DNA from: Syntrophomonadaceae bacterium
Lineage (GTDB): Bacteria > Bacillota > Syntrophomonadia > Syntrophomonadales > Syntrophomonadaceae
Direction: 5' to 3'
Assembly: GCA_014360155.1 (NCBI GenBank)
Contig: JACIYB010000001.1
Span: 1 to 61,272 of the forward strand
Length of the DNA: 61,272 nucleotides
Below the pieces are notes generated by a model. The model had not been told where the DNA came from and made no database searches. It worked only from the letters and a program-made list of their open reading frames with translations. The first letter of the stretch is position 1. Every line of letters begins with the position of its first letter. Positions 28,638 through 50,806 of this stretch are shown here, piece after piece. Position numbers and translations under genes: made by a program.

Positions 28638-28639
28638 GG

Positions 28640-31043: not shown

Positions 31044-31049
31044 CTAATT

Positions 31050-34000: not shown

Positions 34001-34172
34001 CCTGGAAAGCAGTATGGAAAATGTTAGAGATAATTTTATGAAAGATGGCAGGGTTAATATTAGTCTTGAATACGGTGCTGTAAAGTTTGAAACTGGCCAA
34101 CACTTTCTAGATTGGATTGCAGAAAAGAAGAAAGCCCTAAAGGAATTTACTAGACAGGAGATTGTGCAATAA
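31050..34172 (+). CDS. DUF499-type P-loop ATPase (1040 aa)
   Basis: Walker A LTQSMGGGKTHNM, Walker B PLLILLDELPPYL and a long C-terminal extension. Confidence 0.8.
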   Translation: MSLFNLCKPRESVFDETKRDDVIDLTNLADNKINPKEFFEENFVTQGMNILLETAFKRFNRQGATGVIKLTQSMGGGKTHNMIALGLLAKYPEYREQVMGDRFKNSKLGEIKVVAFTGRESDAPYGIWGAIAEQLGKKEVFKDYYSPLQAPGQKAWENLLKGGPLLILLDELPPYLDNAKSKTIGDSNLAAVTTTALANLFNAIGKEELSNVCLVISDLKATYESGSELLQSSFKELENEVNRFALNIEPVGSTSDEVYHILTKRLFKKLPNAKTINEIANEYKKAVSEAKQMGYTNISPEQIFMGIKDSYPFHPSIKDLYARFKENENFQQTRGLIRLMRLIVAQLYRGDQPKAKEKQLINVYDFDLKDPEMLTSITQIKPSLTNAISHDISANGKAIAEVVDASMNETCMQELSKLILVASLADVPNALLGLTFRETIGYLAEPNKDITRVKKALDEFVMQAWYLYTDRDGRLFFKNTKNMIAELNSLVDSYDSDNAKKELRTFLEEKFKPSIHNDCYQKVQVFPAVDEINLTEDKVLLVLFEPYTGSSAKYQGLHPDLANFYDDARYKNRVMFLSGQRSTMDKLIKAAKEHKAINVIIGRMEEEKVAANNPQYQKAVEKLHKIKLELLQASRETFVSLYYPAKNGLMKADFFMEFTGNEYNGEKQIRDVLIQRQKFTENITDETFRKKCEDRLFTQKEMRWSDVKERAATNPLWQWHKMNALDFLKDDMLKKNIWRENGGYIEKPPFPKEKTQVQVQELRRDDQTGEATLKLIPKYGDKVYYEVGGVATEASSPVENLNEFKTKELKLSFLCVDSKGEHETGEPVEWKNKITIKYRVYDKGDNKIVELISAPDVPIKYTTDGSNPKDHGGIYDSEVIIPKNTTYVLAVAEAEGIYSDPLSIKIDWQKDSSLQVDKNKSLKLDKRSKTNDTAETYQELSMLKKHNAKLMDVIVTFFKTDENNNDKGWIELTVDAKTTVNIENLESSMENVRDNFMKDGRVNISLEYGAVKFETGQHFLDWIAEKKKALKEFTRQEIVQ

Positions 34173-34741
34173 TGGCAGAAAAAAAGGTTTCTTTTGGATT
34201 TGGCTTTATACCGTCAGAATCACAACACCATTTTCTCGTGTTGATTCCAAGAAAGCAAGACGAGGAAGTTTATATATACGAAAGATTCCACTGGCAGGAA
34301 GATAAAGAAAATCAAAGTATAGATCTGCGAAACGATAGGCCGAAGGTAAGGCTAACAAAACATAAATGGAAAAAGATTGAGGACACCCTGCGGTTGGAAT
34401 TCAATGAAAGATTAAAAAAAGAAAATATCCTGGTGGGCAAGTGGCATATTGGGCAGGTGCCGGTACAACGCCTTATGGGAAAAGAAATGGTTCTTTTGGC
34501 CTGGGCCATTGAAGATTGCGATCCTTCGGTTATCCCCACTGCTATAAAAAATTGGTTAGGATTAAGCCCGGAAGAACGCTGGTGGCTTTTTACCATGACC
34601 AATGCAGCCACCGGGGGCATTAATGACAAACGTGGCTGGAGGAAGGCCGTCAGATATGCCCTATCTGAAAATCCCATAGAAGAACGGAATAAACAATTAA
34701 GCTTATTTGATTTAACTATTCAGAGAGAGATAGACAAGTAG
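34172..34741 (+). CDS. DUF3780-like small protein (189 aa)
   Basis: TAATG overlap with the DUF499 stop. Assigned from its position between the DUF499 and DUF1156 genes; the family name is recalled, not verified. Confidence 0.55.
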   Translation: MAEKKVSFGFGFIPSESQHHFLVLIPRKQDEEVYIYERFHWQEDKENQSIDLRNDRPKVRLTKHKWKKIEDTLRLEFNERLKKENILVGKWHIGQVPVQRLMGKEMVLLAWAIEDCDPSVIPTAIKNWLGLSPEERWWLFTMTNAATGGINDKRGWRKAVRYALSENPIEERNKQLSLFDLTIQREIDK

Positions 34742-34756
34742 GAAGGAAGTGACAGG

Positions 34757-37666
34757 GTGCTTGACTATGATAAATCATTTATAGAAGTTCAATTTCCGGT
34801 GTCCAAGGTATCCAAGGAGAGCTATAAAGAGAGAAAAGCTAATTTAGGACAAACCTTAACGGGACTGGGTAAATGGTGGGGACGGAAGCCCTTAATACTG
34901 GCTCGTGCCGCAATTTTAGGCCTGCTTATGCCAGTAAGCCAAGACCCCATAAAGGATAGGGAAGTATTTTTAAAAATATTATCTATGGATGATGAAGGCC
35001 TCTGGCAGAGAAAACAAAAGTCCATATCAACTCAGGATATATACGATAATCTGACAAAAAGTGAGCAGCAGAAATATTTTGAAAAAGATACCAAAGGTAA
35101 GCTTAAATATAAAAAAAGTGTCACCAAGGAAGAAAGGGTAAACCTTCAAAAGCTTGTTTTTAATCGCTTTTCTTATGACCAAAAACTTACCTTTTGCATT
35201 AGACCCGAGGAACTTGAAAATATCTCCCAAGATCAGTGGGATATTATCAATGAGCATCTGGGAACTAAAGCTGCCAATATCCAGGAGCTTATACAACAGC
35301 TGGGAGAAAAAAAGTTTGGCAAAACGCCATTAGTAGGGGACTGTTTTGCCGGGGGCGGGAGCGTCCCCTTTGAAGCGGCCAGGTTAGGCTGTGATGTGTA
35401 TGCTTCAGATTTAAATCCCATTGCCATGCTTCTTACCTGGGCAGCCCTGAACATTAACGGAGCCAGCGATGAGGAAATTAAAGAATTAAAAGGGTTTCAG
35501 GAGAAAATTTTTAACTTGGCGGATAAGCAAATAACAGAATGGGGAATAGAGCATAACGAACAAGGCCATAGAGCTAATTCTTACTTATACTGCCATGAAA
35601 CCATATGCCCTGAGTGCGGATATAAAATTCCTCTGGCCTCTTCTTGGATTATCGGTGTTAGAACAAAGACTGTTGCCCTTCTTAAAGAAAATAATGACAA
35701 AGGTTATGATATAGAGATAATTTCCAATGCTTCAAAAGAACAGATAAATTTGGCCGAAAGCCTAGCTACAATTCAAAACAGCAATTTAAAATGCCCTCAC
35801 TGTAACATGACAACTCCTATAACCACTATTAGAAAAGATCGAAAAGTAAACGGAACTATAGAATACGGCCTTCGTCAGTGGGGGGCAAAAGAATTTCTCC
35901 CCAGAGAGGATGATGTCTTCCAGGAGAGGCTATATTGTGTCAGATATGTCAAAGAATACGTCGATGAGAAAGGTAATTTAAAAACGGAACGATATTATCA
36001 AGCCCCTACTACAGAAGATTTAGCAAGAGAAGATAAAGTGGTTGAGCTTTTACAGGAAAGATTCGACGAGTGGCAAGATAAGGGATATATCCCCAGCAAT
36101 AGAATTGAAGAAGGGTATAATACAAGTCAAATTATAAGAGAAAGAGGCTGGGCTTACTGGCATCAGCTTTTTAATCCGAGGCAGTTGCTTTTAAATGGAC
36201 TTATCTCCTTCTTAATTTCAAAAGAAGCAGGCAGCAAAACCAAAAAATCTATTGGGTTACTTGGTTTAAATAAATGTACTGATTATAATTCCAAGTTAAG
36301 TCATTGGAATTCAAACGCGGCTAACGAAAAAGTAGAACATACCTTTTATAATCAAGCATTAAATACATTTTATGTTTACGGAAGTAGAGCATTAGAGGCA
36401 TTAAGGGTGACATGGTTTTATAACATAAATAATTTCAATATTGATATAAAGAATAACATGCAAGTGACAGATGCAAGAAATTTAACTGAAGCAAGCCATG
36501 TATGGATTACCGACCCCCCTTACGCTGATGCGGTCAATTATCATGAATTAAGCGAATTTTTCCTTGCATGGGATAAAAAAATGTTACTAGAAATATTCCC
36601 GGAATGGTATGCAGACAGTAAAAGGGCTTTGGCAGTTACAGGAAGTGGTCTAAGTTTTAATGAAAGTATGATAGAAATATATAGTAATCTTGCAAATCAC
36701 ATGCCCGAGAATGGTATGCAGGTAGTTATGTTTACACACCAAGACCCCAGCGTGTGGGCAGAACTAACTTTAATTTTATGGTCTGCAGGCCTTAGAGTCA
36801 CTGCTGCCTGGAATATTGCTACGGAAACCGATGCAAGTGGGCTTAAACAGGGGAATTATGTAAAAGGAACGGTACTCCTCGTCCTTCGCAAGCAGGAGTC
36901 TGATGATACCGCCTACTTTGATGAACTGTATCCCGAGGTGGAGGAAGAAGTAAAACGGCAGATAGACAGTATGAGAGAGCTTGACGATAAGGAAGACCCA
37001 AACTTTTCTGATGCGGATTATCTCCTGGCAGCCTATGCCGCCTCTCTAAAGGTATTAACCTCATATAAGCAAATTGAAGATATAGATGTAAAATATGAAT
37101 TATCAAAGGATAGAAATTCAGGCGAAGAATCACCCATAGAAAAAATTATTAATGAGTCCATTAAGATAGCATATGACTATTTAACCCCTACGGGCTTTGA
37201 TTCTTTTACCTGGAAAACATTAAAGCCAGAAGAAAGGTTCTATATTAAAGGGTTGGAATTTGAAAAAGACGGCATTTATCAAATTGGTGCCTATCAAGAG
37301 CTGGCCAGGGGCTTTGGGGTGAAAGAATATAAGGATTTGCTGGCAAATACAAAAGCCAATCAAACCCGTTTAAAAACGGCTGCTGAATGGAGCATGAAGG
37401 GCATGAGTGGAACCGATAATTTTGGCTCCTCTCTGCTCCGTAATGTATTGGCAGCCCTTTATCAATGTATTAAAGGAGAAGATACAAGTAAGGGAAGAAA
37501 TTGGCTGAAAAATGAAGTGCCAAACTACTGGAATCAGAGAAACACCATTATGGAATTGCTGGACTTTTTGATAACCCTTGGCCATCATGTGCATATGGAA
37601 CATTGGGATAAAGAAGTGTACTATGCAAAGATGCTGCGGGAACTGGTCAAAAATGACGGGGTATGA
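34757..37666 (+). CDS. DUF1156-type N6-adenine DNA methyltransferase with a Zn-ribbon insert
   Basis: N-terminus FPVSKVSKES...KWWGRKPL, SAM motif I DCFAGGGSVPFEAARLG, Zn ribbons CPECGYKI and CPHCN, catalytic motif IV WITDPPYADAV. Confidence 0.85.
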   Translation: MLDYDKSFIEVQFPVSKVSKESYKERKANLGQTLTGLGKWWGRKPLILARAAILGLLMPVSQDPIKDREVFLKILSMDDEGLWQRKQKSISTQDIYDNLTKSEQQKYFEKDTKGKLKYKKSVTKEERVNLQKLVFNRFSYDQKLTFCIRPEELENISQDQWDIINEHLGTKAANIQELIQQLGEKKFGKTPLVGDCFAGGGSVPFEAARLGCDVYASDLNPIAMLLTWAALNINGASDEEIKELKGFQEKIFNLADKQITEWGIEHNEQGHRANSYLYCHETICPECGYKIPLASSWIIGVRTKTVALLKENNDKGYDIEIISNASKEQINLAESLATIQNSNLKCPHCNMTTPITTIRKDRKVNGTIEYGLRQWGAKEFLPREDDVFQERLYCVRYVKEYVDEKGNLKTERYYQAPTTEDLAREDKVVELLQERFDEWQDKGYIPSNRIEEGYNTSQIIRERGWAYWHQLFNPRQLLLNGLISFLISKEAGSKTKKSIGLLGLNKCTDYNSKLSHWNSNAANEKVEHTFYNQALNTFYVYGSRALEALRVTWFYNINNFNIDIKNNMQVTDARNLTEASHVWITDPPYADAVNYHELSEFFLAWDKKMLLEIFPEWYADSKRALAVTGSGLSFNESMIEIYSNLANHMPENGMQVVMFTHQDPSVWAELTLILWSAGLRVTAAWNIATETDASGLKQGNYVKGTVLLVLRKQESDDTAYFDELYPEVEEEVKRQIDSMRELDDKEDPNFSDADYLLAAYAASLKVLTSYKQIEDIDVKYELSKDRNSGEESPIEKIINESIKIAYDYLTPTGFDSFTWKTLKPEERFYIKGLEFEKDGIYQIGAYQELARGFGVKEYKDLLANTKANQTRLKTAAEWSMKGMSGTDNFGSSLLRNVLAALYQCIKGEDTSKGRNWLKNEVPNYWNQRNTIMELLDFLITLGHHVHMEHWDKEVYYAKMLRELVKNDGV

Positions 37667-40398
37667 GCAGGAGGAAAGCTATGGTTTACCGCTATTCATC
37701 CAGATTAAAGCCACTGGACGAATCATTTCTTAATAAAAAATTAGAAGGAGCAAAAAGTTATGACCGGATAGCAGGTTATTTTAGTTCTTCTATTTTTGAA
37801 GTGGCCGGAGAAGCAATTGAAAAAATGGAGGGGAAAGTCAGAGTTGTTTGCAACTCAGACTTAGAGGTTGAGGACGTTAGAACGGCCAGCGCCGCCATGA
37901 ATGCCATGCGAAAAGAATGGTGTGCTGCCAAACCGGAAGAGTTATATCAAAATGCCCCTGTCAGATTAAAAAAGCTGTATAACTTAATTAAAGATGGCAA
38001 ATTGATGGTTAGGGTTATTCCTAACAAAGTTTTTGGGATGATACACGGTAAGGCAGGAGTTATAACCTTAATTGATGGCCAAAAAACGGCTTTTATTGGC
38101 AGCGCTAATGAAACTTCTTCGGCATGGAAGCTTAATTATGAATTGCTTTGGGAGGATGATTCTCAGGAAGCAATTAGTTGGGTGCAAGAAGAGTTTGACT
38201 ACTTTTGGAATAGTCCTTATGCTATTCCCCTTTCTGAGTTTGTAATAGAAGATATTAATAGAATTGCGGAAAGAAAGGTTATTTATTCAGTAGACGAGTG
38301 GAAAGAAGAAGCAAACCCGGGCTCTACTGTTGTTGAATCTCCGGTTTATAGACAAGAGTATGGTCTTTGGGAGCATCAGAAGTTTTTTGTAAACCTTGCC
38401 TTTACTGACCATAAAAAGCCCTATGGTGCAAGATATGTGTTGGCTGACATGGTAGGGCTGGGTAAAACCATCCAACTGGCTTTATCTGCCCAATTAATGG
38501 CACTTTATGGAGACAGGCCGATTCTTGTCATTGCACCTAAAACCCTTCTCTGGCAGTGGCAGGAAGAATTGAACTCGCTTTTGGACATGCCTTCAGCGGT
38601 ATGGAACGGTAAAGAATGGGTTGACGAAAATGGCATTAAATATCCCAGCAGCGGTGAGGGATCTATAAAAAAGTGCCCCAGAAGAGTGGGTATTATTTCA
38701 CAGGGTCTAATTACGGCCAGGTCTCCCCTGGTGGACCATCTGCTTACAATGGATTTTGAGTGTGTTATTGTGGATGAAGCACACAGGGCCAGAAGGAAAA
38801 ACCTTGGCCCTGATAAGGAAGATGAAAAGCCAAACCCCAATAATTTAATGAAATTTCTCCTGGAAATATCACCAAAAACAAAAAGCATGCTCCTGGCAAC
38901 AGCTACCCCTGTACAGCTTTATCCCATTGAGGCCTGGGATCTGTTATATATATTATCCCAAGCGAATAATAGTGTCCTTGGCAGCAATTTAAGCTTGTGG
39001 AGAAGAAAGCCAGGACAAGCGATTAGATTAATTATGGGAGTGGATAAATTAGACAGATTTAATCCTGAAGTGATTGACTGGATAAGGAATCCTTTTCCGC
39101 CGGCGTCAGAGAACCCTTTAACCTTTGGTAGGATAAGGAATCGTCTAAATATGAAAGAGGAAGATTTTCTTATCAGGCCGGAACAAATAGACTCTCTCCA
39201 AAATACCCCGGACGGACGGAGAATAGGCAGGATAATAGATGATGACTTTATGGCCAGGCATAATCCTTTCATCAGGCACATTGTGAGAAGAACTCGTGAT
39301 TTTCTGGAGAACACTATCAATGAAGAGACGGGGGAGCCTTATCTGAAAAGGATTAAAGTAAACCTGATGGGAGAAGCGGAAGATGAGGCCATTATACTGC
39401 CTCCCTATTTACAAGAAGCTTATGAACATGCAGAAAAGTTTTGTGAGCTCCTTCAAAAGCGTGTCAAGGGAGGCGGGTTTTTAAAAACCTTACTCTTAAA
39501 GCGCGTTGGCAGCACCATGGAAGCAGGCAAAAACACAGCCCAGAAAATGCTTACCAACTGGGGTGGCCTCGGCGATGAAGAAGACTTTGAAGATGAGGAT
39601 ATTTCAGAAGAACTCGTCAGTCAAAGTGAAATAAAAAATATCACAGAGGAAGAAAAAGCATGCTTGCAGCGATTTATACATTCGTTGGAAGCCAACAAGG
39701 GAAAAGATCCCAAATATCAGCTTGTTTTAAGCCTTCTTAAAGATAACAAGTGGATGGAGCTGGGTTGTATTATTTTTTCACAGTATTATGACTCAGCCTA
39801 TTGGGTGGCCGAAAACTTGTCCAGGGAATTAAAAACAGAAAAAATTGGTATCTATGCCGGGGGAGATAAGTCAGGAGTTTTATATGATGGTATTTATAAA
39901 CGTAAGTCTAAAGAAGAAATAAAGCAGATGATAAAAAGGAGAGAACTAAAGATTTTGGTTGGAACAGATGCAGCCAGTGAGGGCCTTAACCTTCAAACCC
40001 TGGGGACCCTCATAAATCTGGACCTACCATGGAACCCTACCCGTCTTGAACAAAGAAAAGGAAGGATACAGAGAATTGGACAGGTTTATGACGAAGTATA
40101 TGTTTACAATATGCGGTATAAAGGATCCGTAGAAGACAGGGTGCATTCTTTACTTTCAGCCAGGCTAGAAAACATTTATGGTTTATTTGGGCAAATTCCA
40201 GATGTGCTGCAGGATGTATGGGTGGAAGTTGCTTTAAATAATATAGCTGAAGCGAAAAGAAAGATTGATGAAGTGCCAAAGCAGCATCCCTTTGAACTCC
40301 GTTATCACGTCCATGTGGGAAAGGTTAACTGGGAAAACTGTGCAGTGGTATTAGATGCAAAAGAAAAAAGAAAACATTTGATGAATGGCTGGAAGTAA
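37663..40398 (+). CDS. PLD-nuclease / SNF2-family helicase fusion protein
   Basis: ATGA overlap with the methyltransferase stop. Single HKD motif HGKAGV...GSANETS. Helicase motifs DMVGLGKT, IVDEAHRARR, LLATATPVQ and QRKGRIQRIGQ. Confidence 0.88.
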   Translation: MSRRKAMVYRYSSRLKPLDESFLNKKLEGAKSYDRIAGYFSSSIFEVAGEAIEKMEGKVRVVCNSDLEVEDVRTASAAMNAMRKEWCAAKPEELYQNAPVRLKKLYNLIKDGKLMVRVIPNKVFGMIHGKAGVITLIDGQKTAFIGSANETSSAWKLNYELLWEDDSQEAISWVQEEFDYFWNSPYAIPLSEFVIEDINRIAERKVIYSVDEWKEEANPGSTVVESPVYRQEYGLWEHQKFFVNLAFTDHKKPYGARYVLADMVGLGKTIQLALSAQLMALYGDRPILVIAPKTLLWQWQEELNSLLDMPSAVWNGKEWVDENGIKYPSSGEGSIKKCPRRVGIISQGLITARSPLVDHLLTMDFECVIVDEAHRARRKNLGPDKEDEKPNPNNLMKFLLEISPKTKSMLLATATPVQLYPIEAWDLLYILSQANNSVLGSNLSLWRRKPGQAIRLIMGVDKLDRFNPEVIDWIRNPFPPASENPLTFGRIRNRLNMKEEDFLIRPEQIDSLQNTPDGRRIGRIIDDDFMARHNPFIRHIVRRTRDFLENTINEETGEPYLKRIKVNLMGEAEDEAIILPPYLQEAYEHAEKFCELLQKRVKGGGFLKTLLLKRVGSTMEAGKNTAQKMLTNWGGLGDEEDFEDEDISEELVSQSEIKNITEEEKACLQRFIHSLEANKGKDPKYQLVLSLLKDNKWMELGCIIFSQYYDSAYWVAENLSRELKTEKIGIYAGGDKSGVLYDGIYKRKSKEEIKQMIKRRELKILVGTDAASEGLNLQTLGTLINLDLPWNPTRLEQRKGRIQRIGQVYDEVYVYNMRYKGSVEDRVHSLLSARLENIYGLFGQIPDVLQDVWVEVALNNIAEAKRKIDEVPKQHPFELRYHVHVGKVNWENCAVVLDAKEKRKHLMNGWK

Positions 40399-40419
40399 AA
40401 AACTGAGTGGTGTTTAAAA

Positions 40420-41715
40420 ATGAAAGATAAAGAATATATTGTTTTTGATCCAAGAGACTTTATCCGTAGCCCCTTTTGGACATGCCCTAAATGTGGTGCT
40501 ACAGATAGTTTTGGTGTATTAATGATCTGCGCAAATCATTATGTAAGAAGATGTAAAAACTGCAGATTTGATGATTCATTCTCTCTTCCAAAACTAAACA
40601 AAAAAATATTATATATTGATCAAATGGCTATTAGTAACATGATGAAAGCTTTGAATCCAGCAACTAAAGCCTACCAAAAAGGAACTGTTGATAATTTCTG
40701 GTTTGAAATGTTCGAGAAGCTTGATACATTAGTAAAGTTACAGGTTTTAATTTGTCCAGACTCATGTTCTCATATGGATGAATCAATCTTGTCTGCTTTT
40801 TACCAGCCATTGAAGCGTATGTATGAATTACTTTCTCATGGTGTCTCTTTTTATGACAGTCAAACGATAAAGCGCTTTCAGATTATAAATCATGTAGAAA
40901 AATACATCTCTGGCAAGTCAGCTGAAATCGATTTAGATATTCACAGAATAGTACATGGAAATATTAATGACTGGCAGGATAGATTTATTATATCTGTTTC
41001 ATCAAATATAGGTGAAGAGTTGATAGATGAGATTCGAGAGCATAGAGAAAAAGCGCATGAACAGTTTGTGGAAATTGCTAAATACTGGCAATCATGCAAA
41101 GACAAAAGTTTTCAGGATTTCTTTGAGACAGAAGCTAAGGCTTTTGGTGAAACTAATATTCAGGTTTATTTAAGATTCAACGAAAGAATAGCTTATCTTG
41201 CAAAAAACCCAGATAAAATTATGTCACCTTTAGAGTTTATGCCTCCTGATGCGGTTGTTTTAATAAATGAAATAGCATCACATTTTATAAAAGCAGGCGT
41301 CTCGGAGTCGGAGGGGTTAGTTCAGGCTTTTAAATACTTAACATCCCCTAGTATGAGAGATATCCCTTTCATAAAAATATCTTCAATGCTATATGCAGCC
41401 CTGGCTAGAAAATATGTATCAGGTCGAAAAAAACCGCCTAATCAAGGGATGTTTACAGATATTGAAACAATTTCCCTACTGCTACCTTATTGTGATGCGA
41501 TGTTTATAGATAACGAATGCCATGGATACTTACAAGAAAACCCACTAAAAGAAAGCATTAATTATAATGCAAGAACATTTTGTCAAAATACTAAAAAGGA
41601 GTTTTTCGAATATCTTGATAAAATTTTTTCAGATATATCGCCTGAACACATAAGTAAGGTCCAAGAGGTATATGGAAGCGATTGGCCCCAACCATATACA
41701 AGTCTTTATAAATAA
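40420..41715 (+). CDS. Hypothetical protein with an N-terminal CxxC...CxxC Zn ribbon (431 aa)
   Basis: CPKCGATDSFGVLMICANHYVRRCKNCRF. Acidic motifs ILYIDQMAISN, HMDES, FTDIETIS and MFIDNE are weakly PIN-like. It starts only 21 nt after the helicase gene. Confidence 0.6.
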   Translation: MKDKEYIVFDPRDFIRSPFWTCPKCGATDSFGVLMICANHYVRRCKNCRFDDSFSLPKLNKKILYIDQMAISNMMKALNPATKAYQKGTVDNFWFEMFEKLDTLVKLQVLICPDSCSHMDESILSAFYQPLKRMYELLSHGVSFYDSQTIKRFQIINHVEKYISGKSAEIDLDIHRIVHGNINDWQDRFIISVSSNIGEELIDEIREHREKAHEQFVEIAKYWQSCKDKSFQDFFETEAKAFGETNIQVYLRFNERIAYLAKNPDKIMSPLEFMPPDAVVLINEIASHFIKAGVSESEGLVQAFKYLTSPSMRDIPFIKISSMLYAALARKYVSGRKKPPNQGMFTDIETISLLLPYCDAMFIDNECHGYLQENPLKESINYNARTFCQNTKKEFFEYLDKIFSDISPEHISKVQEVYGSDWPQPYTSLYK

Positions 41716-41779
41716 TATTGGCATAGAAGACGGAGTCTAGTTTTATAAGTCCAACTTTTGGTAAGCAAGGAGGTGCAAC

Positions 41780-42772
41780 GTGTACAATATCAAGGGTAAA
41801 AAAGCAGAAAAAATTGAAGCTGTAACTTTTTCTGATTTAGGCATGCAGGAAAACGATATAGAAGAAATTCTTAGATGTAGCGTTGACATGTTATGTGACG
41901 ATGAAGACTCAATGCTTATAGTTGGGCGCCAGGTTAAGAATGACAAGTTGGGCAGAAGCGACCTTACAGCAGTGGATAATAATGGGAACATTGTATTAAT
42001 TGAAATTAAAAGGGACCGCAAGGATATTGAAGGCAGGAAAGAGTCCTTTGAATTTCAAGCTATACGTTACGCTGCAAGCTATGCCACCATTGAGAGCCCG
42101 GATGATCTTGTAAAAAAAGTCTATGCGCCTTACATTGAAAAATATCGCAGCGAATTTGAACTAGGAGAGCTTACTTCTTATGAGCTTGGAATTAGGAAAT
42201 TAAATGAGTTTTTAAGGATTAATGAAGCTGAAAAGAACTTCAATAAAAAACAAAAGATAATATTGGTTGCCTCGGATTTTGATGAGCAGACACTTTCAGC
42301 GGTGGCCTGGCTAAATAGCAATAATGTGGATATGAGCTGCTTCAAGCTTACTCCATATAAGCTCCAGGAAAATGTTTATTTGCATACAGAAAAACTGCTT
42401 CCGGTAACTAAATGCGATGACTACTATGTAAACCTTATGGACAAAACCCTACCCGCTAATGTAAAGAAAAATAAAGATATTACCAGGCGCTCACTTCCTA
42501 AAATTGATGCAATGCTCGATTGGGGAGTTGTAAAAGAAGGTGATACTATTATTGCAAAAGGCAGAGAAGAGGAAGGAACCCTTCTCGCTAATGGAAATGT
42601 CATGGCTGATGGCAAAGAAAAATCCATGCAAGTGTGGTTAAAGGAAATTTATGGCTGGTCCAGTGTTCAAACTTATGTGTTTGCAGTTCATAAAGAAAGC
42701 GGAAAAACACTATCGCAGATACGAGAAGAATATATGGAGCAGCAGGCAAAGAAAACTGCAGAAGAAGCGTAA
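41780..42772 (+). CDS. NucS-like PD-(D/E)xK endonuclease-domain protein (330 aa)
   Basis: GTG start after an AAGGAGG RBS. Motif RSDLTAVDNNGNIVLIEIKRD...FQAIRYAASY. The C-terminal ~90 aa domain is unassigned. Confidence 0.65.
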   Translation: MYNIKGKKAEKIEAVTFSDLGMQENDIEEILRCSVDMLCDDEDSMLIVGRQVKNDKLGRSDLTAVDNNGNIVLIEIKRDRKDIEGRKESFEFQAIRYAASYATIESPDDLVKKVYAPYIEKYRSEFELGELTSYELGIRKLNEFLRINEAEKNFNKKQKIILVASDFDEQTLSAVAWLNSNNVDMSCFKLTPYKLQENVYLHTEKLLPVTKCDDYYVNLMDKTLPANVKKNKDITRRSLPKIDAMLDWGVVKEGDTIIAKGREEEGTLLANGNVMADGKEKSMQVWLKEIYGWSSVQTYVFAVHKESGKTLSQIREEYMEQQAKKTAEEA

Positions 42773-42803
42773 AAGTGCATGGTGATGAAAAGAGGGATCA
42801 ATT

Positions 42804-43560
42804 GTGGCGCTGTATGAAAAATCAGTCAAACTCCTTTTCCGAGATATGATAAAAGACCTCGCTATTCAAAAAGGAGAAGTTATAGAGAGAGACAAAATAA
42901 ATTCCTGGTTCAAGACAAAATATCCACTCATAAAGCCTGGCACTATCTCAGCTCATATGCTTAAGTTGTCAACTAATGCCCCAAGCCGAATACATTACAA
43001 CGTTGATTCAAATGGTAAAAAAGATGATCTTTTTTTTTCAGATTGATAGCAAAAAGTTCCGACTCTACGACCAATCTTCTGATCCAGACCCTATCTATTT
43101 CAGACAAAAAGAAGATGAGAAAATAACGCCAGAACATGAAGGATCAGAAGAAGAGAATGGGAATGAATTCGCCTATGAGAAAGATCTTCAGAATTTCTTG
43201 GCAAAGAATCTATCCCTTATTGAGCCGGGTCTATCATTATATTTGGAAGAGGAAATCAGCGGTATCGAATTCCCGGTAGGGAACCGATTCATCGATATAT
43301 TGGCAATCGATAGTAATAATAATTATGTGGTTATAGAACTTAAGGTATCGCGTGGATACGACAGGGTTGTAGGCCAAATCCTTCGCTATATGGCATGGAT
43401 CAGAAAAAACCATGCGGAAGAAAGTCAGAAAGTACGGGGCATAATAATCGCCCGCGAGATTTCGGATGATCTTCTGCTAGCATGTTCTGAGATAAATAAT
43501 GTTGAGTTGTACGAATATAACTTATCGATAACGTTGAATAAAATAAAGAAAAATAGGTAA
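42804..43560 (+). pseudogene. NucS-like PD-(D/E)xK endonuclease-domain protein split by a +1 frameshift in a T9 tract
   Basis: ORFs 42804-43046 and 42976-43560 join seamlessly if one T is removed (…KKDDLFFQIDSKKFRLYD…). The C-terminal part has RFIDILAIDSNNNYVVIELKVSRGYDRVVGQILRYMAW. Confidence 0.75.
43030..43038 (+). repeat. T9 homopolymer at the frameshift site
   Basis: gatc-ttttttttt-cagattg. Nine consecutive T. Confidence 0.95.
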
Positions 43561-43644
43561 CTACCGCATCAACAGCACCAAGATATTATTAGCAAAAGCC
43601 GGCAGAAAATATTGGTCATGTAACTTTGACGGGGAGTTGAGAAG

Positions 43645-44871
43645 ATGGGCCGTATTCAACTGGGCTGGATCGATTATTCTTCGGAACACCGCAATAAAGT
43701 GATGGCGGTGTTGCATGCACTGACAGCTCCGGGGGCTGTCGACGAGCTTGGCATCGGCCAGATTCGAGACGGCTTTGCAAACCTGCTTTTCCCAGGTACA
43801 TCCACCATTCAGACCCGGGCAAAATATTTTTTTATTGTACCTTACCTATTAATGGAGTTGGAGCAGCAGCGCCACCTGACACCAAAATCTTTCCTTCAGA
43901 AGTTAAATGAGATGGAACTGGACATCATTGAACCTTTAAAAAAGAATGGAGAAAAGGGTGTAATTGGCGAAACCGCAGGGAGGGGATTGAAAAGAAAGCC
44001 CTCCAGTATCTATTGGAGTGGACTGCGCACCCTGGGCATGTTTCGCTACCCCCCTTTTTCCCTGGAGGATTATGCCCGGGCGACATGTGCTGTAAGTCAG
44101 GAACTGGCAACCCAACGGGCCATGGGGCGACGAACGGACGATGAGCAGGCACAGGATGATCCGGATGCTTACCAGAGTCCGGTGCCGGGCGGCTTTTGGC
44201 GCTGTCTTCCACCGCCGGAAGACTGGCGTAAGCAGATTACTATCCAATTGTCGGCTGAAGAAGCGGCTTATTTAAAAGATCGCATAAATAAAGCCCCTTT
44301 AACTCGAAATTCTCTCTTTGCCTATCTTGTAAACAAGGACCTGGAAACAATCCAGGCGATTCAAGATATTGAAGCCCTGGGGCAGCTATTTGATTTGCCG
44401 GACTATATCCGTTCGGTCTATGATATGGCCATGCGGTTCTCTGATTTTATTTATGGAGCAACTTTGCGCTACAATGTGATTCTTTCGGGCGGTGAAAACA
44501 AAAGGGCGCTGGAGGGCTGGGAAACCTGGTGCCAGTCAGCCTTTGCAACTCGTTCTTTTGCCGGGTATGACCCTAATGAAGCGATAGATTACCTGAGGGT
44601 TAATAATTATCGATTGCGCAGATTCCTACGGCAGTGGCATGAAAGCTACATGTCAGGTGATATCAATGCGGTGGATGAGTTGATCGTGCAGCGGGAAATT
44701 GAAATCAAGTCGCGTCAACGGGCCAAACTGCGCAACCCGTCTATGTATGTGTACCGGGAGGGAGATGGCATGCGGGGCGGCAAGTTGGATTACCGCTATA
44801 GTAATGCCAGGGTCATTCTCATAGATATTTTTAATGGATTGGAGAAAGGCCATGCTGAGACCGTCCAGTGA
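43645..44871 (+). CDS. Hypothetical protein (408 aa), first gene of the PLD-helicase operon; possibly DUF6361-like
   Basis: N-terminus LGWIDYSSEHRNKVMAVLHAL...VDELGIGQIRDGFANLLFPGTSTIQTRAKYFFIVPYL. I recognised no catalytic motif, and the family name is recollection only. Confidence 0.6.
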   Translation: MGRIQLGWIDYSSEHRNKVMAVLHALTAPGAVDELGIGQIRDGFANLLFPGTSTIQTRAKYFFIVPYLLMELEQQRHLTPKSFLQKLNEMELDIIEPLKKNGEKGVIGETAGRGLKRKPSSIYWSGLRTLGMFRYPPFSLEDYARATCAVSQELATQRAMGRRTDDEQAQDDPDAYQSPVPGGFWRCLPPPEDWRKQITIQLSAEEAAYLKDRINKAPLTRNSLFAYLVNKDLETIQAIQDIEALGQLFDLPDYIRSVYDMAMRFSDFIYGATLRYNVILSGGENKRALEGWETWCQSAFATRSFAGYDPNEAIDYLRVNNYRLRRFLRQWHESYMSGDINAVDELIVQREIEIKSRQRAKLRNPSMYVYREGDGMRGGKLDYRYSNARVILIDIFNGLEKGHAETVQ

Positions 44872-46639
44872 CAGATTAAATTACGGCGATTTACTCATAC
44901 CGCCGCCGGAATACCAGGCAGATTTCGCTTTAGGCACCACCTACAGCCTGGACTTGGAGGCACTGGTGGGTTTGCCCCTGGCTCTGTTTTTGTCTGAAGA
45001 AATGAACAAGAGCCTGTTAAATAATCCGATTGTAGCTCTGGAGGGTTTGCGCCGCAGTGCGGAGCGGTTTGCCGTCTTGTGCGAAGGCGGCCAAATTAAA
45101 GTGCCGCAAAACCAAAATACGGTGTTTTCTCTTTTGGAGGATAGTGTCTTTGAAGTAGTGCTGCCGAATAATTGGTCATTTCATCCGAAAATCTGGCTGA
45201 TCCGCTATCAGGGCGAGAGGAAACAGCCCCTCTACCGCCTTTTGGTGTTGAGCCGGAACCTGACCTTTGACAGAAGCTGGGACATGGCGGTATGTCTGGA
45301 AGGAAGATTAGCTGAAGGGGCAGAAGATGAAGCAGCAGCAAAACAGAATATGCCGCTCATAGCTTTTGTAGAATATCTGCAGGCAAGAGTAAAGAACCGC
45401 AAGAAGCGGGGTCAGATCTCAAAAACGCTGGAAGAACTGAAACAGGTCCGGTTCGAAACCAATGATCCTCATTATTCTGATTTCTCTTTTCATCCCTTGG
45501 GGATTCCGGGACATACAAAGCAGCCGAGTGAACTTTTTGATACATACAAGGACTTACTTGTTATCTCACCTTTTCTCAGCAAGGGCATGGTAGAAAGATT
45601 TAAGAAGCTGGCTCTCTCCGATTCTACCCGCACGTTAATAACGCGACGGACAGAAATTGCAAAACTGTCTCAGGAGATGCTGGAAGCATTTGATGTGTAT
45701 GGCCTGAAAGAAATGGTGGTAGAGGGAGAAGAGGGGTTGAGCGGTGACGATTTAAATGATGAAGCTTATCAAAACCAGGATATTCATGCCAAGTTTTACG
45801 CCCGTTCCAAGTACAGTCAGCACTCATTTTTCGTTGGTTCTGCCAACTGTTCTGAAAGTGCTTTTAGCGGTAACGTGGAATTCTTGTTGCAGCTGCGCTA
45901 CCGCAAACATGGATTTAAGATCCAACACCTGTTGGACGACTTATTCGGCAAAGATGACAAGGACAATCCTTTTGAACTGATTAAGGAGTTACCGGAAGTT
46001 GATACGCCTGATACTACTGCTTCTGATTTGCTGGAAAAAGCCATTAAGCAGCTATGCCGCACCCGTTCCAAGGCAAGGGTAATAAAAGAAGGCCAGCAAT
46101 ATCGAGTAAAGATTGAGTTTGCAAAAATTCCGGAAGAGGTGGATTTAACCATTGCCTCTATAACAGGGATACAGCCGGTTAAGCTGGAACCAGTAACAAT
46201 ACTACCCCTCCTGCCATTAGAGCAACTAAGTGAGTTTTACCAGGTGACCGCCTGCAAAGAAGAAACTGCTGTACGACGGATAATCAAGATCAAAACCACC
46301 GGTATCCCAGAGGAGCGGGATAAAGCAGTTTTTAGGTCAATCATCCGGGACCGAGATACATTTATGAAGTACGTGGCTTTTTTGCTGTCCGATAGCCTGC
46401 TTCTTTCCAGCCTGGAGCAAATGGACGCCGAACGGTTGGGTAAAGGCAAATGGAATGTTAGCTGGTTGCAGGCGCCAGTCTTATATGAGAATATGCTGAA
46501 AACTGTGGCTAGGGAACCGGAACGCTTAAAAGAGATTGAACGGGTGATAAAGTTAATCGATGATCAGGAGATAATTCCGGAGGATTTTAATGAACTGTAT
46601 CAAATTTTCAGCCAGGCAGCAAAGAAGGTGAAAAGATGA
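44852..46639 (+). CDS. Phospholipase D-family nuclease with two HKD motifs
   Basis: HKD 1 is SFHPKIWLIRY...LSRNLT. HKD 2 is IHAKFYARS...FVGSANCSESAF. The ATG at 44852 follows a GGAGAAAGG RBS and overlaps the upstream gene by 20 nt (the track ORF starts at 44834). Confidence 0.85.
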   Translation: MLRPSSDRLNYGDLLIPPPEYQADFALGTTYSLDLEALVGLPLALFLSEEMNKSLLNNPIVALEGLRRSAERFAVLCEGGQIKVPQNQNTVFSLLEDSVFEVVLPNNWSFHPKIWLIRYQGERKQPLYRLLVLSRNLTFDRSWDMAVCLEGRLAEGAEDEAAAKQNMPLIAFVEYLQARVKNRKKRGQISKTLEELKQVRFETNDPHYSDFSFHPLGIPGHTKQPSELFDTYKDLLVISPFLSKGMVERFKKLALSDSTRTLITRRTEIAKLSQEMLEAFDVYGLKEMVVEGEEGLSGDDLNDEAYQNQDIHAKFYARSKYSQHSFFVGSANCSESAFSGNVEFLLQLRYRKHGFKIQHLLDDLFGKDDKDNPFELIKELPEVDTPDTTASDLLEKAIKQLCRTRSKARVIKEGQQYRVKIEFAKIPEEVDLTIASITGIQPVKLEPVTILPLLPLEQLSEFYQVTACKEETAVRRIIKIKTTGIPEERDKAVFRSIIRDRDTFMKYVAFLLSDSLLLSSLEQMDAERLGKGKWNVSWLQAPVLYENMLKTVAREPERLKEIERVIKLIDDQEIIPEDFNELYQIFSQAAKKVKR

Positions 46640-49600
46640 TTGATCTGGCAGCAAAAGAAAAAGAAATACTGTCGGGCTTGAAAGATTTCCAACTGGCAAC
46701 GGTAAACAGAGTAGATGATTTATTCCGAAACGGGTACCACCGTGTCCTGGTAGCGGATGAAGTAGGCCTGGGAAAAACACTGGTGGCCAAAGGTGTTATT
46801 GCGAAAATGTCCTGCTTTCATCAGAAAAGATCTATGAAAGACTTGTTTAAAGTAGTTTATGTTTGTTCCAATCAGAGCATTGCCGGGCAAAATCTAAAAA
46901 AATTAAAGGTGCATCCGGGGGTCAAAGTGGACGGACTTTCAGATACCCGCTTGTCGATGCAGCATCTGAAGATCTATGAACAGATGCATGATCCTACCAT
47001 CCGGGAAGGTTTTGTGCAGCTTATTCCATTAACACCAGGCACTTCTTTTACCATGACGGGCGGCTGTGGCAGTGTGCTGGAGCGAGCACTTATTTATGCC
47101 ATTTTCCGACACATTTATTTCTTTAAGCCATATTTACCACAGCTGGAGGAATTAATGACATCCTATGCGATGAAGAGCTGGCCGTACTGGTCAAACAGAT
47201 TCGAACAGCTTGTGCTAGAGGTGGATCAAAAAAGTGACGGAGCTTATTTACACCATATACTGAAAAAAGTAAGTGACCGCCTGGAGGCAGACCCTGAATT
47301 GTTAAGGTTGGCAGAAAAAGTATTTGCTTCTATAGAGACAATCGGCTACCTCAAAACTCAAAAAGCCAACTACCTGATTTCGCAGTTTCGTAAAATGATG
47401 GCTGAAATCAGCGTGGAGATGATGGACGCCGATCTGGTCATTATGGACGAGTTCCAGCGTTTTCCAGAACTCATAAAACTGGACGAAGATAACGAAACGG
47501 CCATGCTGGCCCGTCGGTTTTTCAGTCCAGAAATAGAGAAAAAACATCACCCTTACATTCTTCTGTTGTCGGCGACTCCCTATAAATTGTATTCCACCCT
47601 GGAGGAAATTCGGGAAAACCGCAAGGATGAACATTATGAAGAATTCATGCAGGTGATGCACTTTCTTTTTGAACACCAGGCGGATCTGCGCCAGAAATTT
47701 AACATTACCTGGAAAAACTACTCCTTGACATTAAATGAAGCTTCTTATCGCGATACGGCGCTTATAGTAGCACGCAAGCGAGAGGCGGAAGAATGTCTGT
47801 ATAATGGGGTCTGTCGGACGGAGCGCATGAAGGTGCCAGGAGCGTCAGACTTAATTGATGTAGAAACCAGAAATGGATCGCTAAAGGTACAGGAAGATGA
47901 TATTCTGTCCTTTGTGGAGATGGACAAAGCGCTTTCTGCGGTAGGACTAAGCGGGGCAGCTTCGGTAGAATACATTAAGTCTGCGCCCTTCATCATGTCG
48001 TTTATGCAGCACTACAAACTGAAACAGAAGCTGCAGGACAAACTGAAGTTAGAGCCAGAGAAGCTACCGCTGCTGAAAAGTCAGAGACTGTGGGTAAATC
48101 GCAAGAAGGTTGCTAGATACAAAGACTTAAAGGTGAACCATGCCCGCTATAATAAGCTGCGGGAAGTGGCACTGCCACCTCAGGCAGAAAAACTGCTGTG
48201 GGTACCGCCCGCGCGGCCATATTACCCGATGGGTGGACCGTTTAAAAGCCAAGAAGGTTTTTCCAAGACACTGGTCTTTTCGGCATGGGAAATGGTTCCG
48301 CGGGCCATCGCCGCCTTATTATCCTATGAAGCAGAACGTTTGACTGTCGGTGAGCTGATTCGTAAAACACCAAAAACTGAGCATGAAAACCGCAGCTATT
48401 TTGCTAAAAATAGGTTTCCGGCGCCCAGGATTAAATTTGCCATGAAGAACAACGAACCGGAGAATATGAATCATTTGTGTCTATTGTATCCTTCTGCGAC
48501 CCTGGCTTCTCTTTATGACCCAATAGGTGGAATGAATCGCGGCTTAAACCTGCGACAAATTCGCACAGAAATTCGTCAAATAATTAAAGACCAACTGGAG
48601 CAGATGAAGTTTCATATACAGCGAGGAGATCAGCGGCAGGACGAACGGTGGTATTACATGGCGCCACTGCTGATGGACCAAAAACATCCAGGTATGGAGG
48701 CATGGTTTCAAAACCTGGTATTGCGAAACTTAACAGAAGGTTTGGACGGAGTGGACAGGTATGAGGATGATAAAGGGATTATTTCCAAACATCTGCAACA
48801 GCTGAAAAGATTGTATGATGAACCGGGATTGCTGAACATGGGTCGGATGCCCCGGGATCTCGAAGAGGTCCTTGTAAATATGGCTATTGCTTCCCCGGCA
48901 GTGTGTGCGCTGAGAATGCTGGATCCTGGTACCCCAGGCTCAGTGGATTTGGCATTGCAGCTGGCAAAAACCATAGTGGACCGTTTTAATACTCAAGAGG
49001 CCATTGCCATCGTGGATTTATCATATGGTAAGGCGGGTGAGGGGGTTCATTGGAAGAGTATCCTGCGGTATTGTATGGACGGAAATCTGCAAGCCGTCCT
49101 GGATGAATATGCCCATATGTTGTTAGAAGGATACGATTTCAGCCAATGGGAACGTAAAGAGCGCAATGTCGTGCTGATTAAAGATATGACCCGGACACTG
49201 AAGACCCATACAGCCAGTTACAGTGTGGATACCTACCAGCATTTCAGTGATAGTATTAAGGATCCTAAAAAAATAAGCCGTAAAGAGCGCTATATGCGCA
49301 TGCGTTCCAGTTATGCCGTCGGATTTTATGACACTAAAAGTGAAGGTAAAAGCGTTCAGCGGAAAGATAATATCCGATTAAGTTTTAATTCACCTTTCCG
49401 ACCTTTTGTCCTGGCCACTACCTCTATTGGACAAGAAGGGCTGGACTTTCATTACTATTGTCGTAATGTTGTTCATTGGAATCTGCCAGGAAACCCCATT
49501 GATTTGGAGCAGCGGGAAGGGCGTATCAACCGTTATAAATGCCATGCTATCCGACAGAATATCGCCTTTAAATATGGGAAAATGTTCTTCCAATCGGACA

Positions 49601-49956
49601 TTTGGCAGGAAATGTTTAACCAGGCCCAAAAACAAGAAAGCAACAGTGAGACCAGTGACCTTGTCCCTTTCTGGTGTTTGCCAGAGCAGGAGAATGAACC
49701 GCAGCCCTTCAAAATCCAGCGGGTTATTCCACTGTACCCCATGAGCAGAGACAGCGCTCGCTATGAACGCCTGATCAAGATTCTCTCATTATACCGGTTA
49801 AGCCTTGGACAGGCTAGACAGGAAGAACTAATTGATTACCTTTTCGAGAGAGGATTTGAGGAGATGGGGGAACTTTTTATGAATTTAAGTCCATACTTTA
49901 AGGAAGGACGAGGTAAACCTGGAATAGCAAAAGATAGCAAGGAGAACAAATCATGA
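46636..49956 (+). CDS. SNF2/DEAD-like superfamily 2 helicase (1106 aa)
   Basis: ATGA overlap with the PLD stop. Motif I VADEVGLGKT, II LVIMDEFQRF, III LLLSATPYK, V TTSIGQEGLDF, VI EQREGRINRY. Confidence 0.88.
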   Translation: MIDLAAKEKEILSGLKDFQLATVNRVDDLFRNGYHRVLVADEVGLGKTLVAKGVIAKMSCFHQKRSMKDLFKVVYVCSNQSIAGQNLKKLKVHPGVKVDGLSDTRLSMQHLKIYEQMHDPTIREGFVQLIPLTPGTSFTMTGGCGSVLERALIYAIFRHIYFFKPYLPQLEELMTSYAMKSWPYWSNRFEQLVLEVDQKSDGAYLHHILKKVSDRLEADPELLRLAEKVFASIETIGYLKTQKANYLISQFRKMMAEISVEMMDADLVIMDEFQRFPELIKLDEDNETAMLARRFFSPEIEKKHHPYILLLSATPYKLYSTLEEIRENRKDEHYEEFMQVMHFLFEHQADLRQKFNITWKNYSLTLNEASYRDTALIVARKREAEECLYNGVCRTERMKVPGASDLIDVETRNGSLKVQEDDILSFVEMDKALSAVGLSGAASVEYIKSAPFIMSFMQHYKLKQKLQDKLKLEPEKLPLLKSQRLWVNRKKVARYKDLKVNHARYNKLREVALPPQAEKLLWVPPARPYYPMGGPFKSQEGFSKTLVFSAWEMVPRAIAALLSYEAERLTVGELIRKTPKTEHENRSYFAKNRFPAPRIKFAMKNNEPENMNHLCLLYPSATLASLYDPIGGMNRGLNLRQIRTEIRQIIKDQLEQMKFHIQRGDQRQDERWYYMAPLLMDQKHPGMEAWFQNLVLRNLTEGLDGVDRYEDDKGIISKHLQQLKRLYDEPGLLNMGRMPRDLEEVLVNMAIASPAVCALRMLDPGTPGSVDLALQLAKTIVDRFNTQEAIAIVDLSYGKAGEGVHWKSILRYCMDGNLQAVLDEYAHMLLEGYDFSQWERKERNVVLIKDMTRTLKTHTASYSVDTYQHFSDSIKDPKKISRKERYMRMRSSYAVGFYDTKSEGKSVQRKDNIRLSFNSPFRPFVLATTSIGQEGLDFHYYCRNVVHWNLPGNPIDLEQREGRINRYKCHAIRQNIAFKYGKMFFQSDIWQEMFNQAQKQESNSETSDLVPFWCLPEQENEPQPFKIQRVIPLYPMSRDSARYERLIKILSLYRLSLGQARQEELIDYLFERGFEEMGELFMNLSPYFKEGRGKPGIAKDSKENKS

Positions 49957-50687
49957 AGGCATATATTATTAAAATAGAACTTAAACACTCGGACCCCCTT
50001 ATCTGGCGAAAAGTCATCATGCCCGCAGGCGCCACATTTAACCGGCTCCATGATGTAATCCAGACGGTTACAAACTTTCAAAGCGGCTACCCTTCTAGGG
50101 ATTATCATCTCTATGAGTTTGACCTGAGGAAAGAAAATATCAGGGTAACCAATGATGAGGAAGCTTACCAGGAGCATCTCCATTTCAAAAAGAACAGAAA
50201 AGCATATGAGAAAAGGCTAAAAACAATACCTCCGGATCAGGCCGGGTTTGAAAAAGCCTATCAGGAAAGACTCCAAGTGACAGTGCGTAAACCCACGGGG
50301 CTAAAGATTGATGATTACCTCGAAAAGCATAAAGAGATTCTTTACCGTTATGATTTCGGGGATGGCTGGGAATTTATCATCAGGCTGGAAGATATAGTGG
50401 ATGATTATTATTTTGGTTACCCAACACTTCTTGATGGTGAGGAGACAGCACCCCCGGAAGATGTGGGCGGAATCTCAGGATTCTATGATTTTTTAAAAGC
50501 TTACCGGGACGAGAAGCATTCGGAACATGAAGAAATGAAGGCATGGGCGGACGGACAGGGGTTTAAAGAATATGATCCGGAATGGATTAACGAATTACTG
50601 AAGAACATTGCCTATAAAAAAACAGAGTGGGATAAAATTAATCACGACAGGTATATGATCATTGAGGACAAGTATCGGAAGAAATAA
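49953..50687 (+). CDS. Plasmid pRiA4b ORF-3-like (PRiA4_ORF3) family protein
   Basis: ATGA overlap with the helicase stop. Motifs IWRKVIMPAGATFNRLHDVIQ, YRYDFGDGWEF and PPEDVGGISGFYDFL. Confidence 0.8.
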   Translation: MKAYIIKIELKHSDPLIWRKVIMPAGATFNRLHDVIQTVTNFQSGYPSRDYHLYEFDLRKENIRVTNDEEAYQEHLHFKKNRKAYEKRLKTIPPDQAGFEKAYQERLQVTVRKPTGLKIDDYLEKHKEILYRYDFGDGWEFIIRLEDIVDDYYFGYPTLLDGEETAPPEDVGGISGFYDFLKAYRDEKHSEHEEMKAWADGQGFKEYDPEWINELLKNIAYKKTEWDKINHDRYMIIEDKYRKK

Positions 50688-50806
50688 CAAGGCGATCAGG
50701 GAATCAATTAATTTTTCGATAACGAAACAAGAATGGCAGGGTATTACGGAGCTGTTGACCTGAGGATAGCTGCAGAAGCATTACCTTGCAGAACAGGAGG
50801 TTTTCC

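Follow-up and report, generated by a model that had tools for sequence, protein, structure and literature searches.

The block at positions 40,420 to 43,560 of contig JACIYB010000001.1 (assembly GCA_014360155.1) from a Syntrophomonadaceae bacterium is composed of three genes, referred to here as geneA, geneB and geneC. The window analysed is the stretch of 61,272 nt from position 1 of this contig, obtained from an oil-production-facility metagenome, and coordinates refer to it. This block of 3.1 kb probably consists of three independent single-gene cassettes located between a Type-2 BREX-related (BR) system, which contains a DUF499 gene, and an Azaca system. Each of the three genes would be mobile alone, and they would be stacked as a mosaic between these two known anti-phage systems. 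The cargo is two catalogued candidate families and one unclassified candidate family, geneA. As judged from domain matches, geneC is a probably disrupted member of the PDC-S02 family (DUF7669 + NucS_C), and geneB is a predicted NucS-like PD-(D/E)xK nuclease with a C-terminal RAMA domain, a sensor-swapped relative of PDC-S11 ("Madara"). GeneB is a new sensor variant of this just-validated enzyme. The false lead of a new three-gene system is removed, and two of the genes are now named.

Context and history of the three genes

The context of geneA was surveyed at 80 loci (given L numbers, as are the other loci below) fetched from species-representative genomes of many phyla, with homologues of 28-54% identity; counts are over 79 of these. 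A geneB-like gene is present at none of the 79 loci, a geneC-like gene at one and a DUF499 operon at one. When the neighbours of geneA are clustered, no family is present in more than 7 of the 79 loci, and the 147 nearest neighbours belong to 117 Pfam families, each found in at most 5 loci. No small open reading frame (ORF) recurs beside the homologues, and an antitoxin-like partner of geneA was rejected on this ground. The reverse survey covered 79 metagenome loci encoding geneC homologues of 52-94% identity; geneA is found at none of these, geneB at one, and there is no recurrent partner. The initial annotation had raised a three-gene block and the question whether geneA homologues recurrently lie next to NucS-like genes, to be refuted if no conserved association was present in other genomes. 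Such an association is absent from both surveys, and by this criterion the three-gene system is refuted.

The three genes are found together only in DNA that is ~91% identical to the window (L081-L083 and a contig from sequencing run X2). In one of these relatives (L081 3729-6638) the DUF1156 methyltransferase is called as 477, 302 and 137 aa instead of 969 aa and is possibly pseudogenised. The island as a whole is a mosaic, as one set of relatives shares 31028-42870 and another shares only 42656-49990. This second set (L084-L093) encodes the last 117 nt of geneB followed by geneC and Azaca. The upstream part is replaced in these relatives by other defence genes, either DUF488/DuOB or ScoMcrA-HNH. 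In one Dethiobacteria metagenome-assembled genome (MAG), ZacC of the Azaca system is called as two genes of 669 + 451 aa (L084 11894-15218); the window and other such MAGs encode it uninterrupted (1107 aa). The flanks of the cassettes contain short chance repeat matches only.

GeneC, geneB and the NucS-like nuclease core

The core pattern D...hhhIE(I/L)K...Q..RY is common to geneB, geneC and the DUF4268 gene downstream of Azaca, and a profile comparison of the geneB family with the geneC family gives an E value of 4e-4. The initial description of geneB and geneC as NucS-like PD-(D/E)xK proteins with different accessory domains holds, these domains being RAMA and DUF7669 respectively, and the third island protein said to carry this core is the DUF4268 gene product (50786-51757). 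The same annotation could not assign the trio to a named system. GeneB is now placed near PDC-S11 (E 3e-38) and geneC matches PADLOC PDC-S02 (E 2e-27); for geneA there is still no family model. Orthology with NucS/EndoMS was rejected for both nucleases, which score 18.6 bits (geneB) and 65.3 bits (geneC) against an NCBIfam equivalog cut-off of 216 bits.

The third gene had been delimited as a 194-aa ORF at 42976-43560, which exists, but the true start of the gene is the GTG at 42804. An 80-aa ORF from this GTG matches DUF7669 (E 1e-12) and overlaps the 194-aa ORF, which features NucS_C (Pfam, E 2e-12) and whose first ~21 residues are out-of-frame sequence. Both domains of PDC-S02 are present, but they lie in different frames and not in one polypeptide of ~250 aa, and the split is at a run of nine T residues (T9). 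With one T removed, the reading frame gives 251 aa, and across its whole length this protein has 96% identity with intact DUF7669 + NucS_C homologues of 247-250 aa. Related strains from runs X2 (depth 447) and X23 have eight T residues (T8), with one T missing at 43030. An in-frame 3-nt deletion at 43017 is also present in both of these strains. In the source run X1, T9 is supported at a contig depth of ~8.8 only. T9 is likely a true frameshift, from a fixed pseudogene or phase variation, but an assembly error at this depth or a mixed population may instead explain it. The additional T would inactivate or phase-switch geneC here, and the T8/T9 pair would provide a simple example of a defence gene turned off by homopolymer slip. 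The geneC homologues number 3,614, and the 120 best listed are 69-96% identical and belong to several phyla. No experimental test of the PDC-S02 family was found in the literature searched, and a genome-wide association study preprint only correlates the family with prophage number.

Residues 1-241 of the geneB product match PADLOC PDC-S11 (PDLC04909, E 3.3e-38). The nuclease region (~1-235) contains D61/D66, E75-I-K77 and Q93..R96-Y97, and the first two of these motifs are invariant in 23 homologues. Residues 241-323 match the Pfam RAMA domain with an E value of 4.5e-5, below the curated cut-off, and RAMA is also featured in the precomputed annotation of the homologues. A DUF4268 or EVE-like sensor was not found in geneB, and the PADLOC models are covered only to ~231 of 347. 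The AlphaFold model has a low overall quality (pLDDT 58.6), and only its C-terminal domain match is usable, to CcrM 6pbd (probability 1.0) and to a SAND domain. The gene has a strong ribosome-binding site (RBS) of its own, AAGGAGGTG. In the related strain of run X2, a 51-nt in-frame deletion (42196-42248) is located in the linker between the nuclease and RAMA.

Homologues of geneB with at least 79% protein identity are encoded in Streptococcus suis, Bacillus, Bacteroides, Globicatella and others. At the DNA level identity falls to 73-80% and breaks off at the edges of the ORF plus RBS. The high protein identity relative to the DNA, together with this sharp end, indicates that the geneB protein is strongly constrained and that the gene travels as an ORF-sized cassette. 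It is found directly 3' of a type I/III res gene in at least 8 of ~15 distinct contexts, with gaps of 18-253 nt (L178, L179-181, L182-185, L187/L190, L199, L200, L201 and L205). In one lineage (L182-L185) a PC4-domain gene (73 aa) is located between the type I hsdR and the geneB homologue. RAMA is named for its association with adenine-methylating restriction-modification (R-M) systems and was proposed to be an N6-methyladenine (m6A) reader. The RAMA domain of geneB would read the modification state of DNA and gate cleavage, which would make geneB a Type IV-like or R-M-auxiliary nuclease. Since geneB is habitually found by adenine methyltransferases of varied specificity, simple cutting of any m6A DNA seems unlikely; it appears more plausible that the host mark protects or that another modification is recognised. 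GeneB presents a ready-made test case for what RAMA senses.

The geneA family and competing readings of the block

GeneA belongs to a large unnamed family that is predicted to contain an N-terminal C4 zinc ribbon, an alpha/beta core and a helical insert of ~170 residues. The AlphaFold2 model of the protein is confident (pLDDT 90.8, pTM 0.88). No Pfam, NCBIfam, PADLOC or PHROG model matches geneA beyond weak zinc-ribbon hits by hidden Markov model (HMM) to Zn-ribbon, Elf1 and DUF3797, and this conserved family is overlooked by current defence-finding tools. The homologues form 688 clusters at 90% identity. Clustering at 50% identity gives 1,791 clusters when E<=1e-3 is required and 675 when E<=1e-30 is, with a length of ~430 aa for every member listed, and a representative-library search for distant relatives returned full-length family members only, with no informative other architectures. 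The annotated CxxC...CxxC ribbon corresponds to C22, C25, C45 and C48, each kept in at least 90% of 26 homologues. Invariant residues of the core are D67, Q68, S72, C112, P113, S115, H118, E121 and S122 in its first half and D347, S352, P356, Y357, C358 and D364 in its second half. Over homologues of 44-94% identity D67, H118, E121, S122, D347 and D364 are invariant. The four acidic motifs listed initially (YIDQ, HMDES, FTDIE, FIDNE) are all present, but D120 and E349 within them are not conserved. A further strand is predicted at 385-387. The helical insert breaks the strand-helix pattern of the core, and Foldseek of the model identified no structural analogue for it.

By predicted secondary structure, D67, E121, D347 and D364 lie at the acidic positions of PIN domains, with respect to position along the chain only: the first follows beta1, the second is in the helix behind beta2, the third is at the N-terminus of the helix preceding beta4 and the fourth follows beta4. 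In the fold they would be found where the strands of a parallel sheet have their C-terminal ends. The PIN-like site split by a large insert that the initial annotation had tentatively suggested is compatible with these invariant residues and with the order of predicted strands and helices, and geneA may be a metal-dependent, PIN-like nuclease. When the full-length model was compared with PDB and BFVD by Foldseek, the zinc ribbon alone was matched, by small viral zinc-ribbon proteins and NrdR; the 170-residue insert may mask a PIN/NYN fold match of this model. A family profile and a core-only profile gave nothing beyond noise against PDB sequences. At E<=10, the PIN clan is absent from the 4 Pfam matches of geneA and from the 25 most widely matched of 33 families across 26 members. 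Kinship with HEC-09 (NYN, Hma-embedded) was rejected, as geneA has no PADLOC match to it and the hhalign probability is 0.4-1.4%; the top local pairing in this alignment is a TD(I/V)..I motif and is not significant. It is a tentative and somewhat doubtful proposal that the geneA family represents a new stand-alone anti-phage or back-up effector with an undescribed nuclease architecture. GeneA would then serve as a self-contained or back-up effector that is expressed here through read-through from the upstream operon, and if this is true the undescribed architecture would extend to ~1,800 clusters (50% identity) without a family model or PDB analogue.

GeneA has 140 matches in 185,579 species genomes, distributed over many phyla, and is almost missing from mobile records (0 of 50,697 phage records, 2 of 72,556 plasmids and 4 of 2.9 million viral contigs). 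Most copies are solitary amid unrelated genes, and R-M-like genes are found within 10 kb in 11 of the 79 genome loci. Same-strand copies follow a type I hsdR at L026, L064, L072 and L078, and a helicase-methyltransferase-DUF499 operon at L055. Three of the closest metagenomic relatives were examined for context: the homologue is located 10 nt past a DUF499 gene at L193 (55% identity), 297 nt past PglZ-BrxL at L192 (59% identity) and among toxin-antitoxin genes at L194. The placements behind type I hsdR, PglZ-BrxL and DUF499 point to a trailing or embedded habit. The PDC families of PADLOC were defined by guilt-by-embedding in BREX, DISARM and type I R-M systems (bioRxiv 10.1101/2024.01.29.577857), and geneA is not among the PDC candidates. 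Four Atribacterota loci (L028, L032, L033 and L040) exhibit the conserved order P5C reductase - aminotransferase - geneA - thiamin pyrophosphokinase, which is a setting outside defence and stable to an unexpected degree. The homologue directly follows the class I/II aminotransferase on the same strand at these loci and at L002 (Latescibacterota).

The PLD-SNF2 helicase gene ends at 40398. The initial annotation placed geneA 21 nt after this stop with no visible terminator, and both the coordinates and a terminator scan agree: no + strand terminator-like site is present within 39800-44000, and the scan gave 3 sites, each on the - strand, with 2.7 expected by chance. Its suggestion of co-transcription across 40398-40420 is supported by RNA-library contigs of two related strains that cross the helicase-geneA joint (40173-40536 in X25 and 40210-40814 in X23), although RNA libraries may include DNA. 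Read-through from the upstream operon into geneA is likely. Contigs in X4 (DNA) and X23 (RNA library) agree with the window up to 40397, or from 40416 onwards, and are unrelated to it beyond that point, so geneA or the helicase gene has other neighbours in these samples. GeneA has a GC content of 0.335, and 0.266 at third codon positions (GC3), against 0.39-0.41 and 0.37-0.43 respectively for the upstream operon. GeneB (0.383) and geneC (0.36-0.38) differ little from the operon in GC content, and Azaca is at 0.45-0.50; of the AT-rich block described initially, only geneA is markedly AT-rich. The divergence of contigs at 40397/40416 together with the difference in GC3 marks the joint as a cassette boundary, and the 21-nt spacer is also a recombination joint. 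In the source-sample metatranscriptome (X24), the ZacA contig has a depth of 18-26 (43700-44000) versus ~3.6-3.8 for pieces of geneA and geneC, which suggests that Azaca is preceded by a separate, stronger promoter.

That the three genes constitute one novel three-component defence system is extremely improbable. They are neighbours on the same strand, with gaps of 64 nt between geneA and geneB and 31 nt between geneB and geneC, and the trio is kept in the ~91% identical strains; however, no co-occurrence is seen outside that lineage, each gene is represented elsewhere by hundreds to thousands of homologues, geneC is frameshifted here, and there are relatives with geneC and Azaca but without geneA and geneB. 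It is also very unlikely that geneC is a fourth, accessory gene of the downstream Azaca system. Whereas geneC is always followed by ZacA-ZacB-ZacC at 158 nt in the 94% identical relatives, in which the upstream neighbours vary (DUF488/DuOB or ScoMcrA-HNH), among the 53 geneC loci that are more divergent and extend at least 600 nt past the gene, only 2 have a ZacA-like match, and in neither is it directly downstream. The sole directly downstream ZacA belongs to the 94% identical copy L099, which has less than 600 nt downstream. The depth in the source-sample RNA library, 18-26 for ZacA versus ~3.8 for geneC, also suggests separate promoters. A four-gene unit of geneC with Azaca was rejected, as the co-occurrence with ZacA, ZacB and ZacC is gone below ~94% identity.

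Another reading makes geneA, and possibly geneB, an auxiliary or back-up effector that is functionally part of the upstream Type-2 BR system, co-transcribed with it and activated when its primary HKD-helicase effector is blocked. This is unlikely, since a DUF499 operon is present in only 1 of 79 geneA genome loci and the family also trails type I R-M and BREX-1, usually alone. The 21-nt gap without a terminator and the RNA-library contigs of two related strains spanning the joint are in its favour, but the GC3 of geneA is 0.27 against 0.37-0.43 for the operon, contigs from X4 and X23 break at 40397 and 40416, and geneB has its own strong RBS and is found behind unrelated R-M types. Homologues of geneA do follow DUF499 operons at 55% identity (L193, 10-nt gap) and 33% identity (L055, 1.15 kb), and recurrent PD-(D/E)xK and PIN nucleases by BR loci are reported (PMC12839542). 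A role for geneA as a Type-2 BR component proper was rejected: none of the 79 genome loci has a Type-2 BR operon, the sole DUF499-type operon (L055) is without DUF3780, and the Type-2 BR core genes here are all upstream of geneA. A comparably low probability applies to geneA not being a defence gene, in which case it would be a housekeeping or RNA-processing enzyme found here by chance. The mostly metabolic or unrelated nearest neighbours, the fixed place between aminotransferase and thiamin pyrophosphokinase in several Atribacterota and the near absence from phage, plasmid and viral records are consistent with this, but the very patchy distribution across species genomes, the atypical base composition of geneA here and its repeated same-strand placement behind four different kinds of modification-based defence operons are not.

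The preferred reading of three independent defence cassettes has several points to its disadvantage. Relatives L084-L093 lack geneA and geneB and yet retain the last ~117 nt of geneB (42656-42772) before geneC, so the geneB-geneC adjacency is older than this strain. At 5 of the 79 geneC loci (L100, L117, L125, L144 and L147) a DUF4268 (PDC-S11) gene is no more than ~1 kb from the geneC homologue, and NucS-like single-gene nucleases may cluster loosely. All genes in 31050-51757 have the same orientation and are separated by short gaps, and no terminator is predicted, so the trio may be co-expressed; the helicase-geneA joint is crossed by RNA-library contigs. Most geneA copies lie among housekeeping genes, with synteny in Atribacterota. 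The nuclease role of geneA is read from conserved residues and predicted topology alone, with no PIN support from HMM or fold searches, and the preference of RAMA for m6A DNA is still without experimental confirmation.

Island layout and comparison with known systems

All genes within 31050-51757 are on the + strand (Table 1). The upstream DUF499 operon fits the 'Type-2 BREX-related (BR)' system as classified in PMC12839542. A PRiA4_ORF3 gene starts at 49953, with a 4-nt overlap with the ZacC stop, and is followed by the PDC-S11/Madara-type gene. Relatives with the same Azaca are without these two genes and the homology stops at 49990; the pair (49953-51757) looks like a further insertion. Transposase and insertion sequence (IS) remnants at both ends define the stretch between them as an IS-bounded defence island of ~22 kb. 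The nearest named relatives of the island genes are from Dethiobacteria and 'Firmicutes' MAGs.

Table 1. Features of the island in the window.
Feature	Position	Strand	Description
Transposase/IS remnants (AAA_22, rve/HTH_32, DUF6431)	27931-30404		Left edge of island
DUF499 ATPase	31050-34172	+	First gene of upstream operon
DUF499 ATPase, DUF3780, DUF1156 N6-methyltransferase, PLD(HKD)-SNF2 helicase	31050-40398	+	Context operon upstream of geneA
Spacer, helicase stop to geneA start	40399-40419	+	21 nt
geneA	40420-41715	+	431 aa
geneA residues 1-56, zinc ribbon C22/C25/C45/C48	40420-40587	+	Four beta strands in model
geneA residues 57-165, core first half	40588-40914	+	Strands 62-66, ~109-113, 143-144
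geneA residues 166-335, helical insert	40915-41424	+	Long helices 199-225 and 231-262
geneA residues 336-431, core second half	41425-41712	+	Helix 344-357, strand 360-362
geneB	41780-42772	+	330 aa
geneC, whole gene	42804-43560	+	DUF7669 + NucS_C; split into 80-aa + 194-aa ORFs
T9 homopolymer	43030-43038	+	+1 frameshift splitting geneC (likely)
Azaca: ZacA, ZacB, ZacC	43645-49956	+	E 1e-102, 5e-162 and 0
PDC-S11/Madara-type protein, full-length: NucS-like nuclease + DUF4268	50786-51757	+	PADLOC E 8e-115
Transposase/IS remnants (DDE DUF772, rve)	51851-53333		Right edge of island

GeneA resembles the PIN-like/NYN nucleases found by BREX, BR and Hma systems (HEC-09 of Payne et al.; the 'back-up PIN endoRNases' of PMC12839542) in that it is also located behind such systems as a single gene, with a zinc ribbon and an alpha/beta domain featuring conserved Asp/Glu residues. 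It differs in being twice the size, in the 170-residue helical insert and in having no PIN-clan HMM or structural match. GeneC has the same DUF7669 + NucS_C pair as PADLOC PDC-S02, a guilt-by-embedding candidate (bioRxiv 10.1101/2024.01.29.577857), but is split here. The mismatch endonuclease NucS/EndoMS belongs to the same nuclease core family, and EndoMS 5gkj is among the weak fold matches for geneB, but the accessory domains of geneB and geneC are different.

GeneB shares with the described RAMA-fusion endonucleases (Iyer et al. 2016, PMC4738411; PMC11037411) the combination of RAMA with a restriction-type nuclease beside N6-adenine-methylating R-M genes. Those fusions involve REase, HNH, GIY-YIG, Mrr and McrB-type modules, whereas the geneB nuclease is NucS-like, and no description of a NucS-like + RAMA fusion was found in the literature searched. 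The placement of geneB follows a logic like that of BrxU/GmrSD with BREX, in which an R-M-like system is joined by a nuclease and sensor encoded in one gene; these type IV enzymes complement a modification-based system, but their domains (DUF262/HNH) are unrelated. Auxiliary nucleases are reported beside BREX and BR loci (PMC12839542). A further close comparison is with Madara (PDC-S11), validated in September 2026, which consists of a NucS-like nuclease and an EVE-like domain, restricts glucosyl-hydroxymethylcytosine T4, is dead as a D63A mutant and complements BREX (bioRxiv 10.64898/2026.09.05.749240). A full-length PDC-S11 protein is encoded 8 kb downstream of geneB. The N-terminal NucS-like PD-(D/E)xK nuclease and the linker region after it are common to geneB and Madara. 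GeneB is a single-gene cassette by a modification-based system, as Madara is by BREX, but it features RAMA where Madara has the DUF4268 (EVE-like) sensor. The NucS-like nuclease of Madara is thus also paired with a RAMA reader, in a variant located behind adenine-methylating R-M systems in over half of its contexts.

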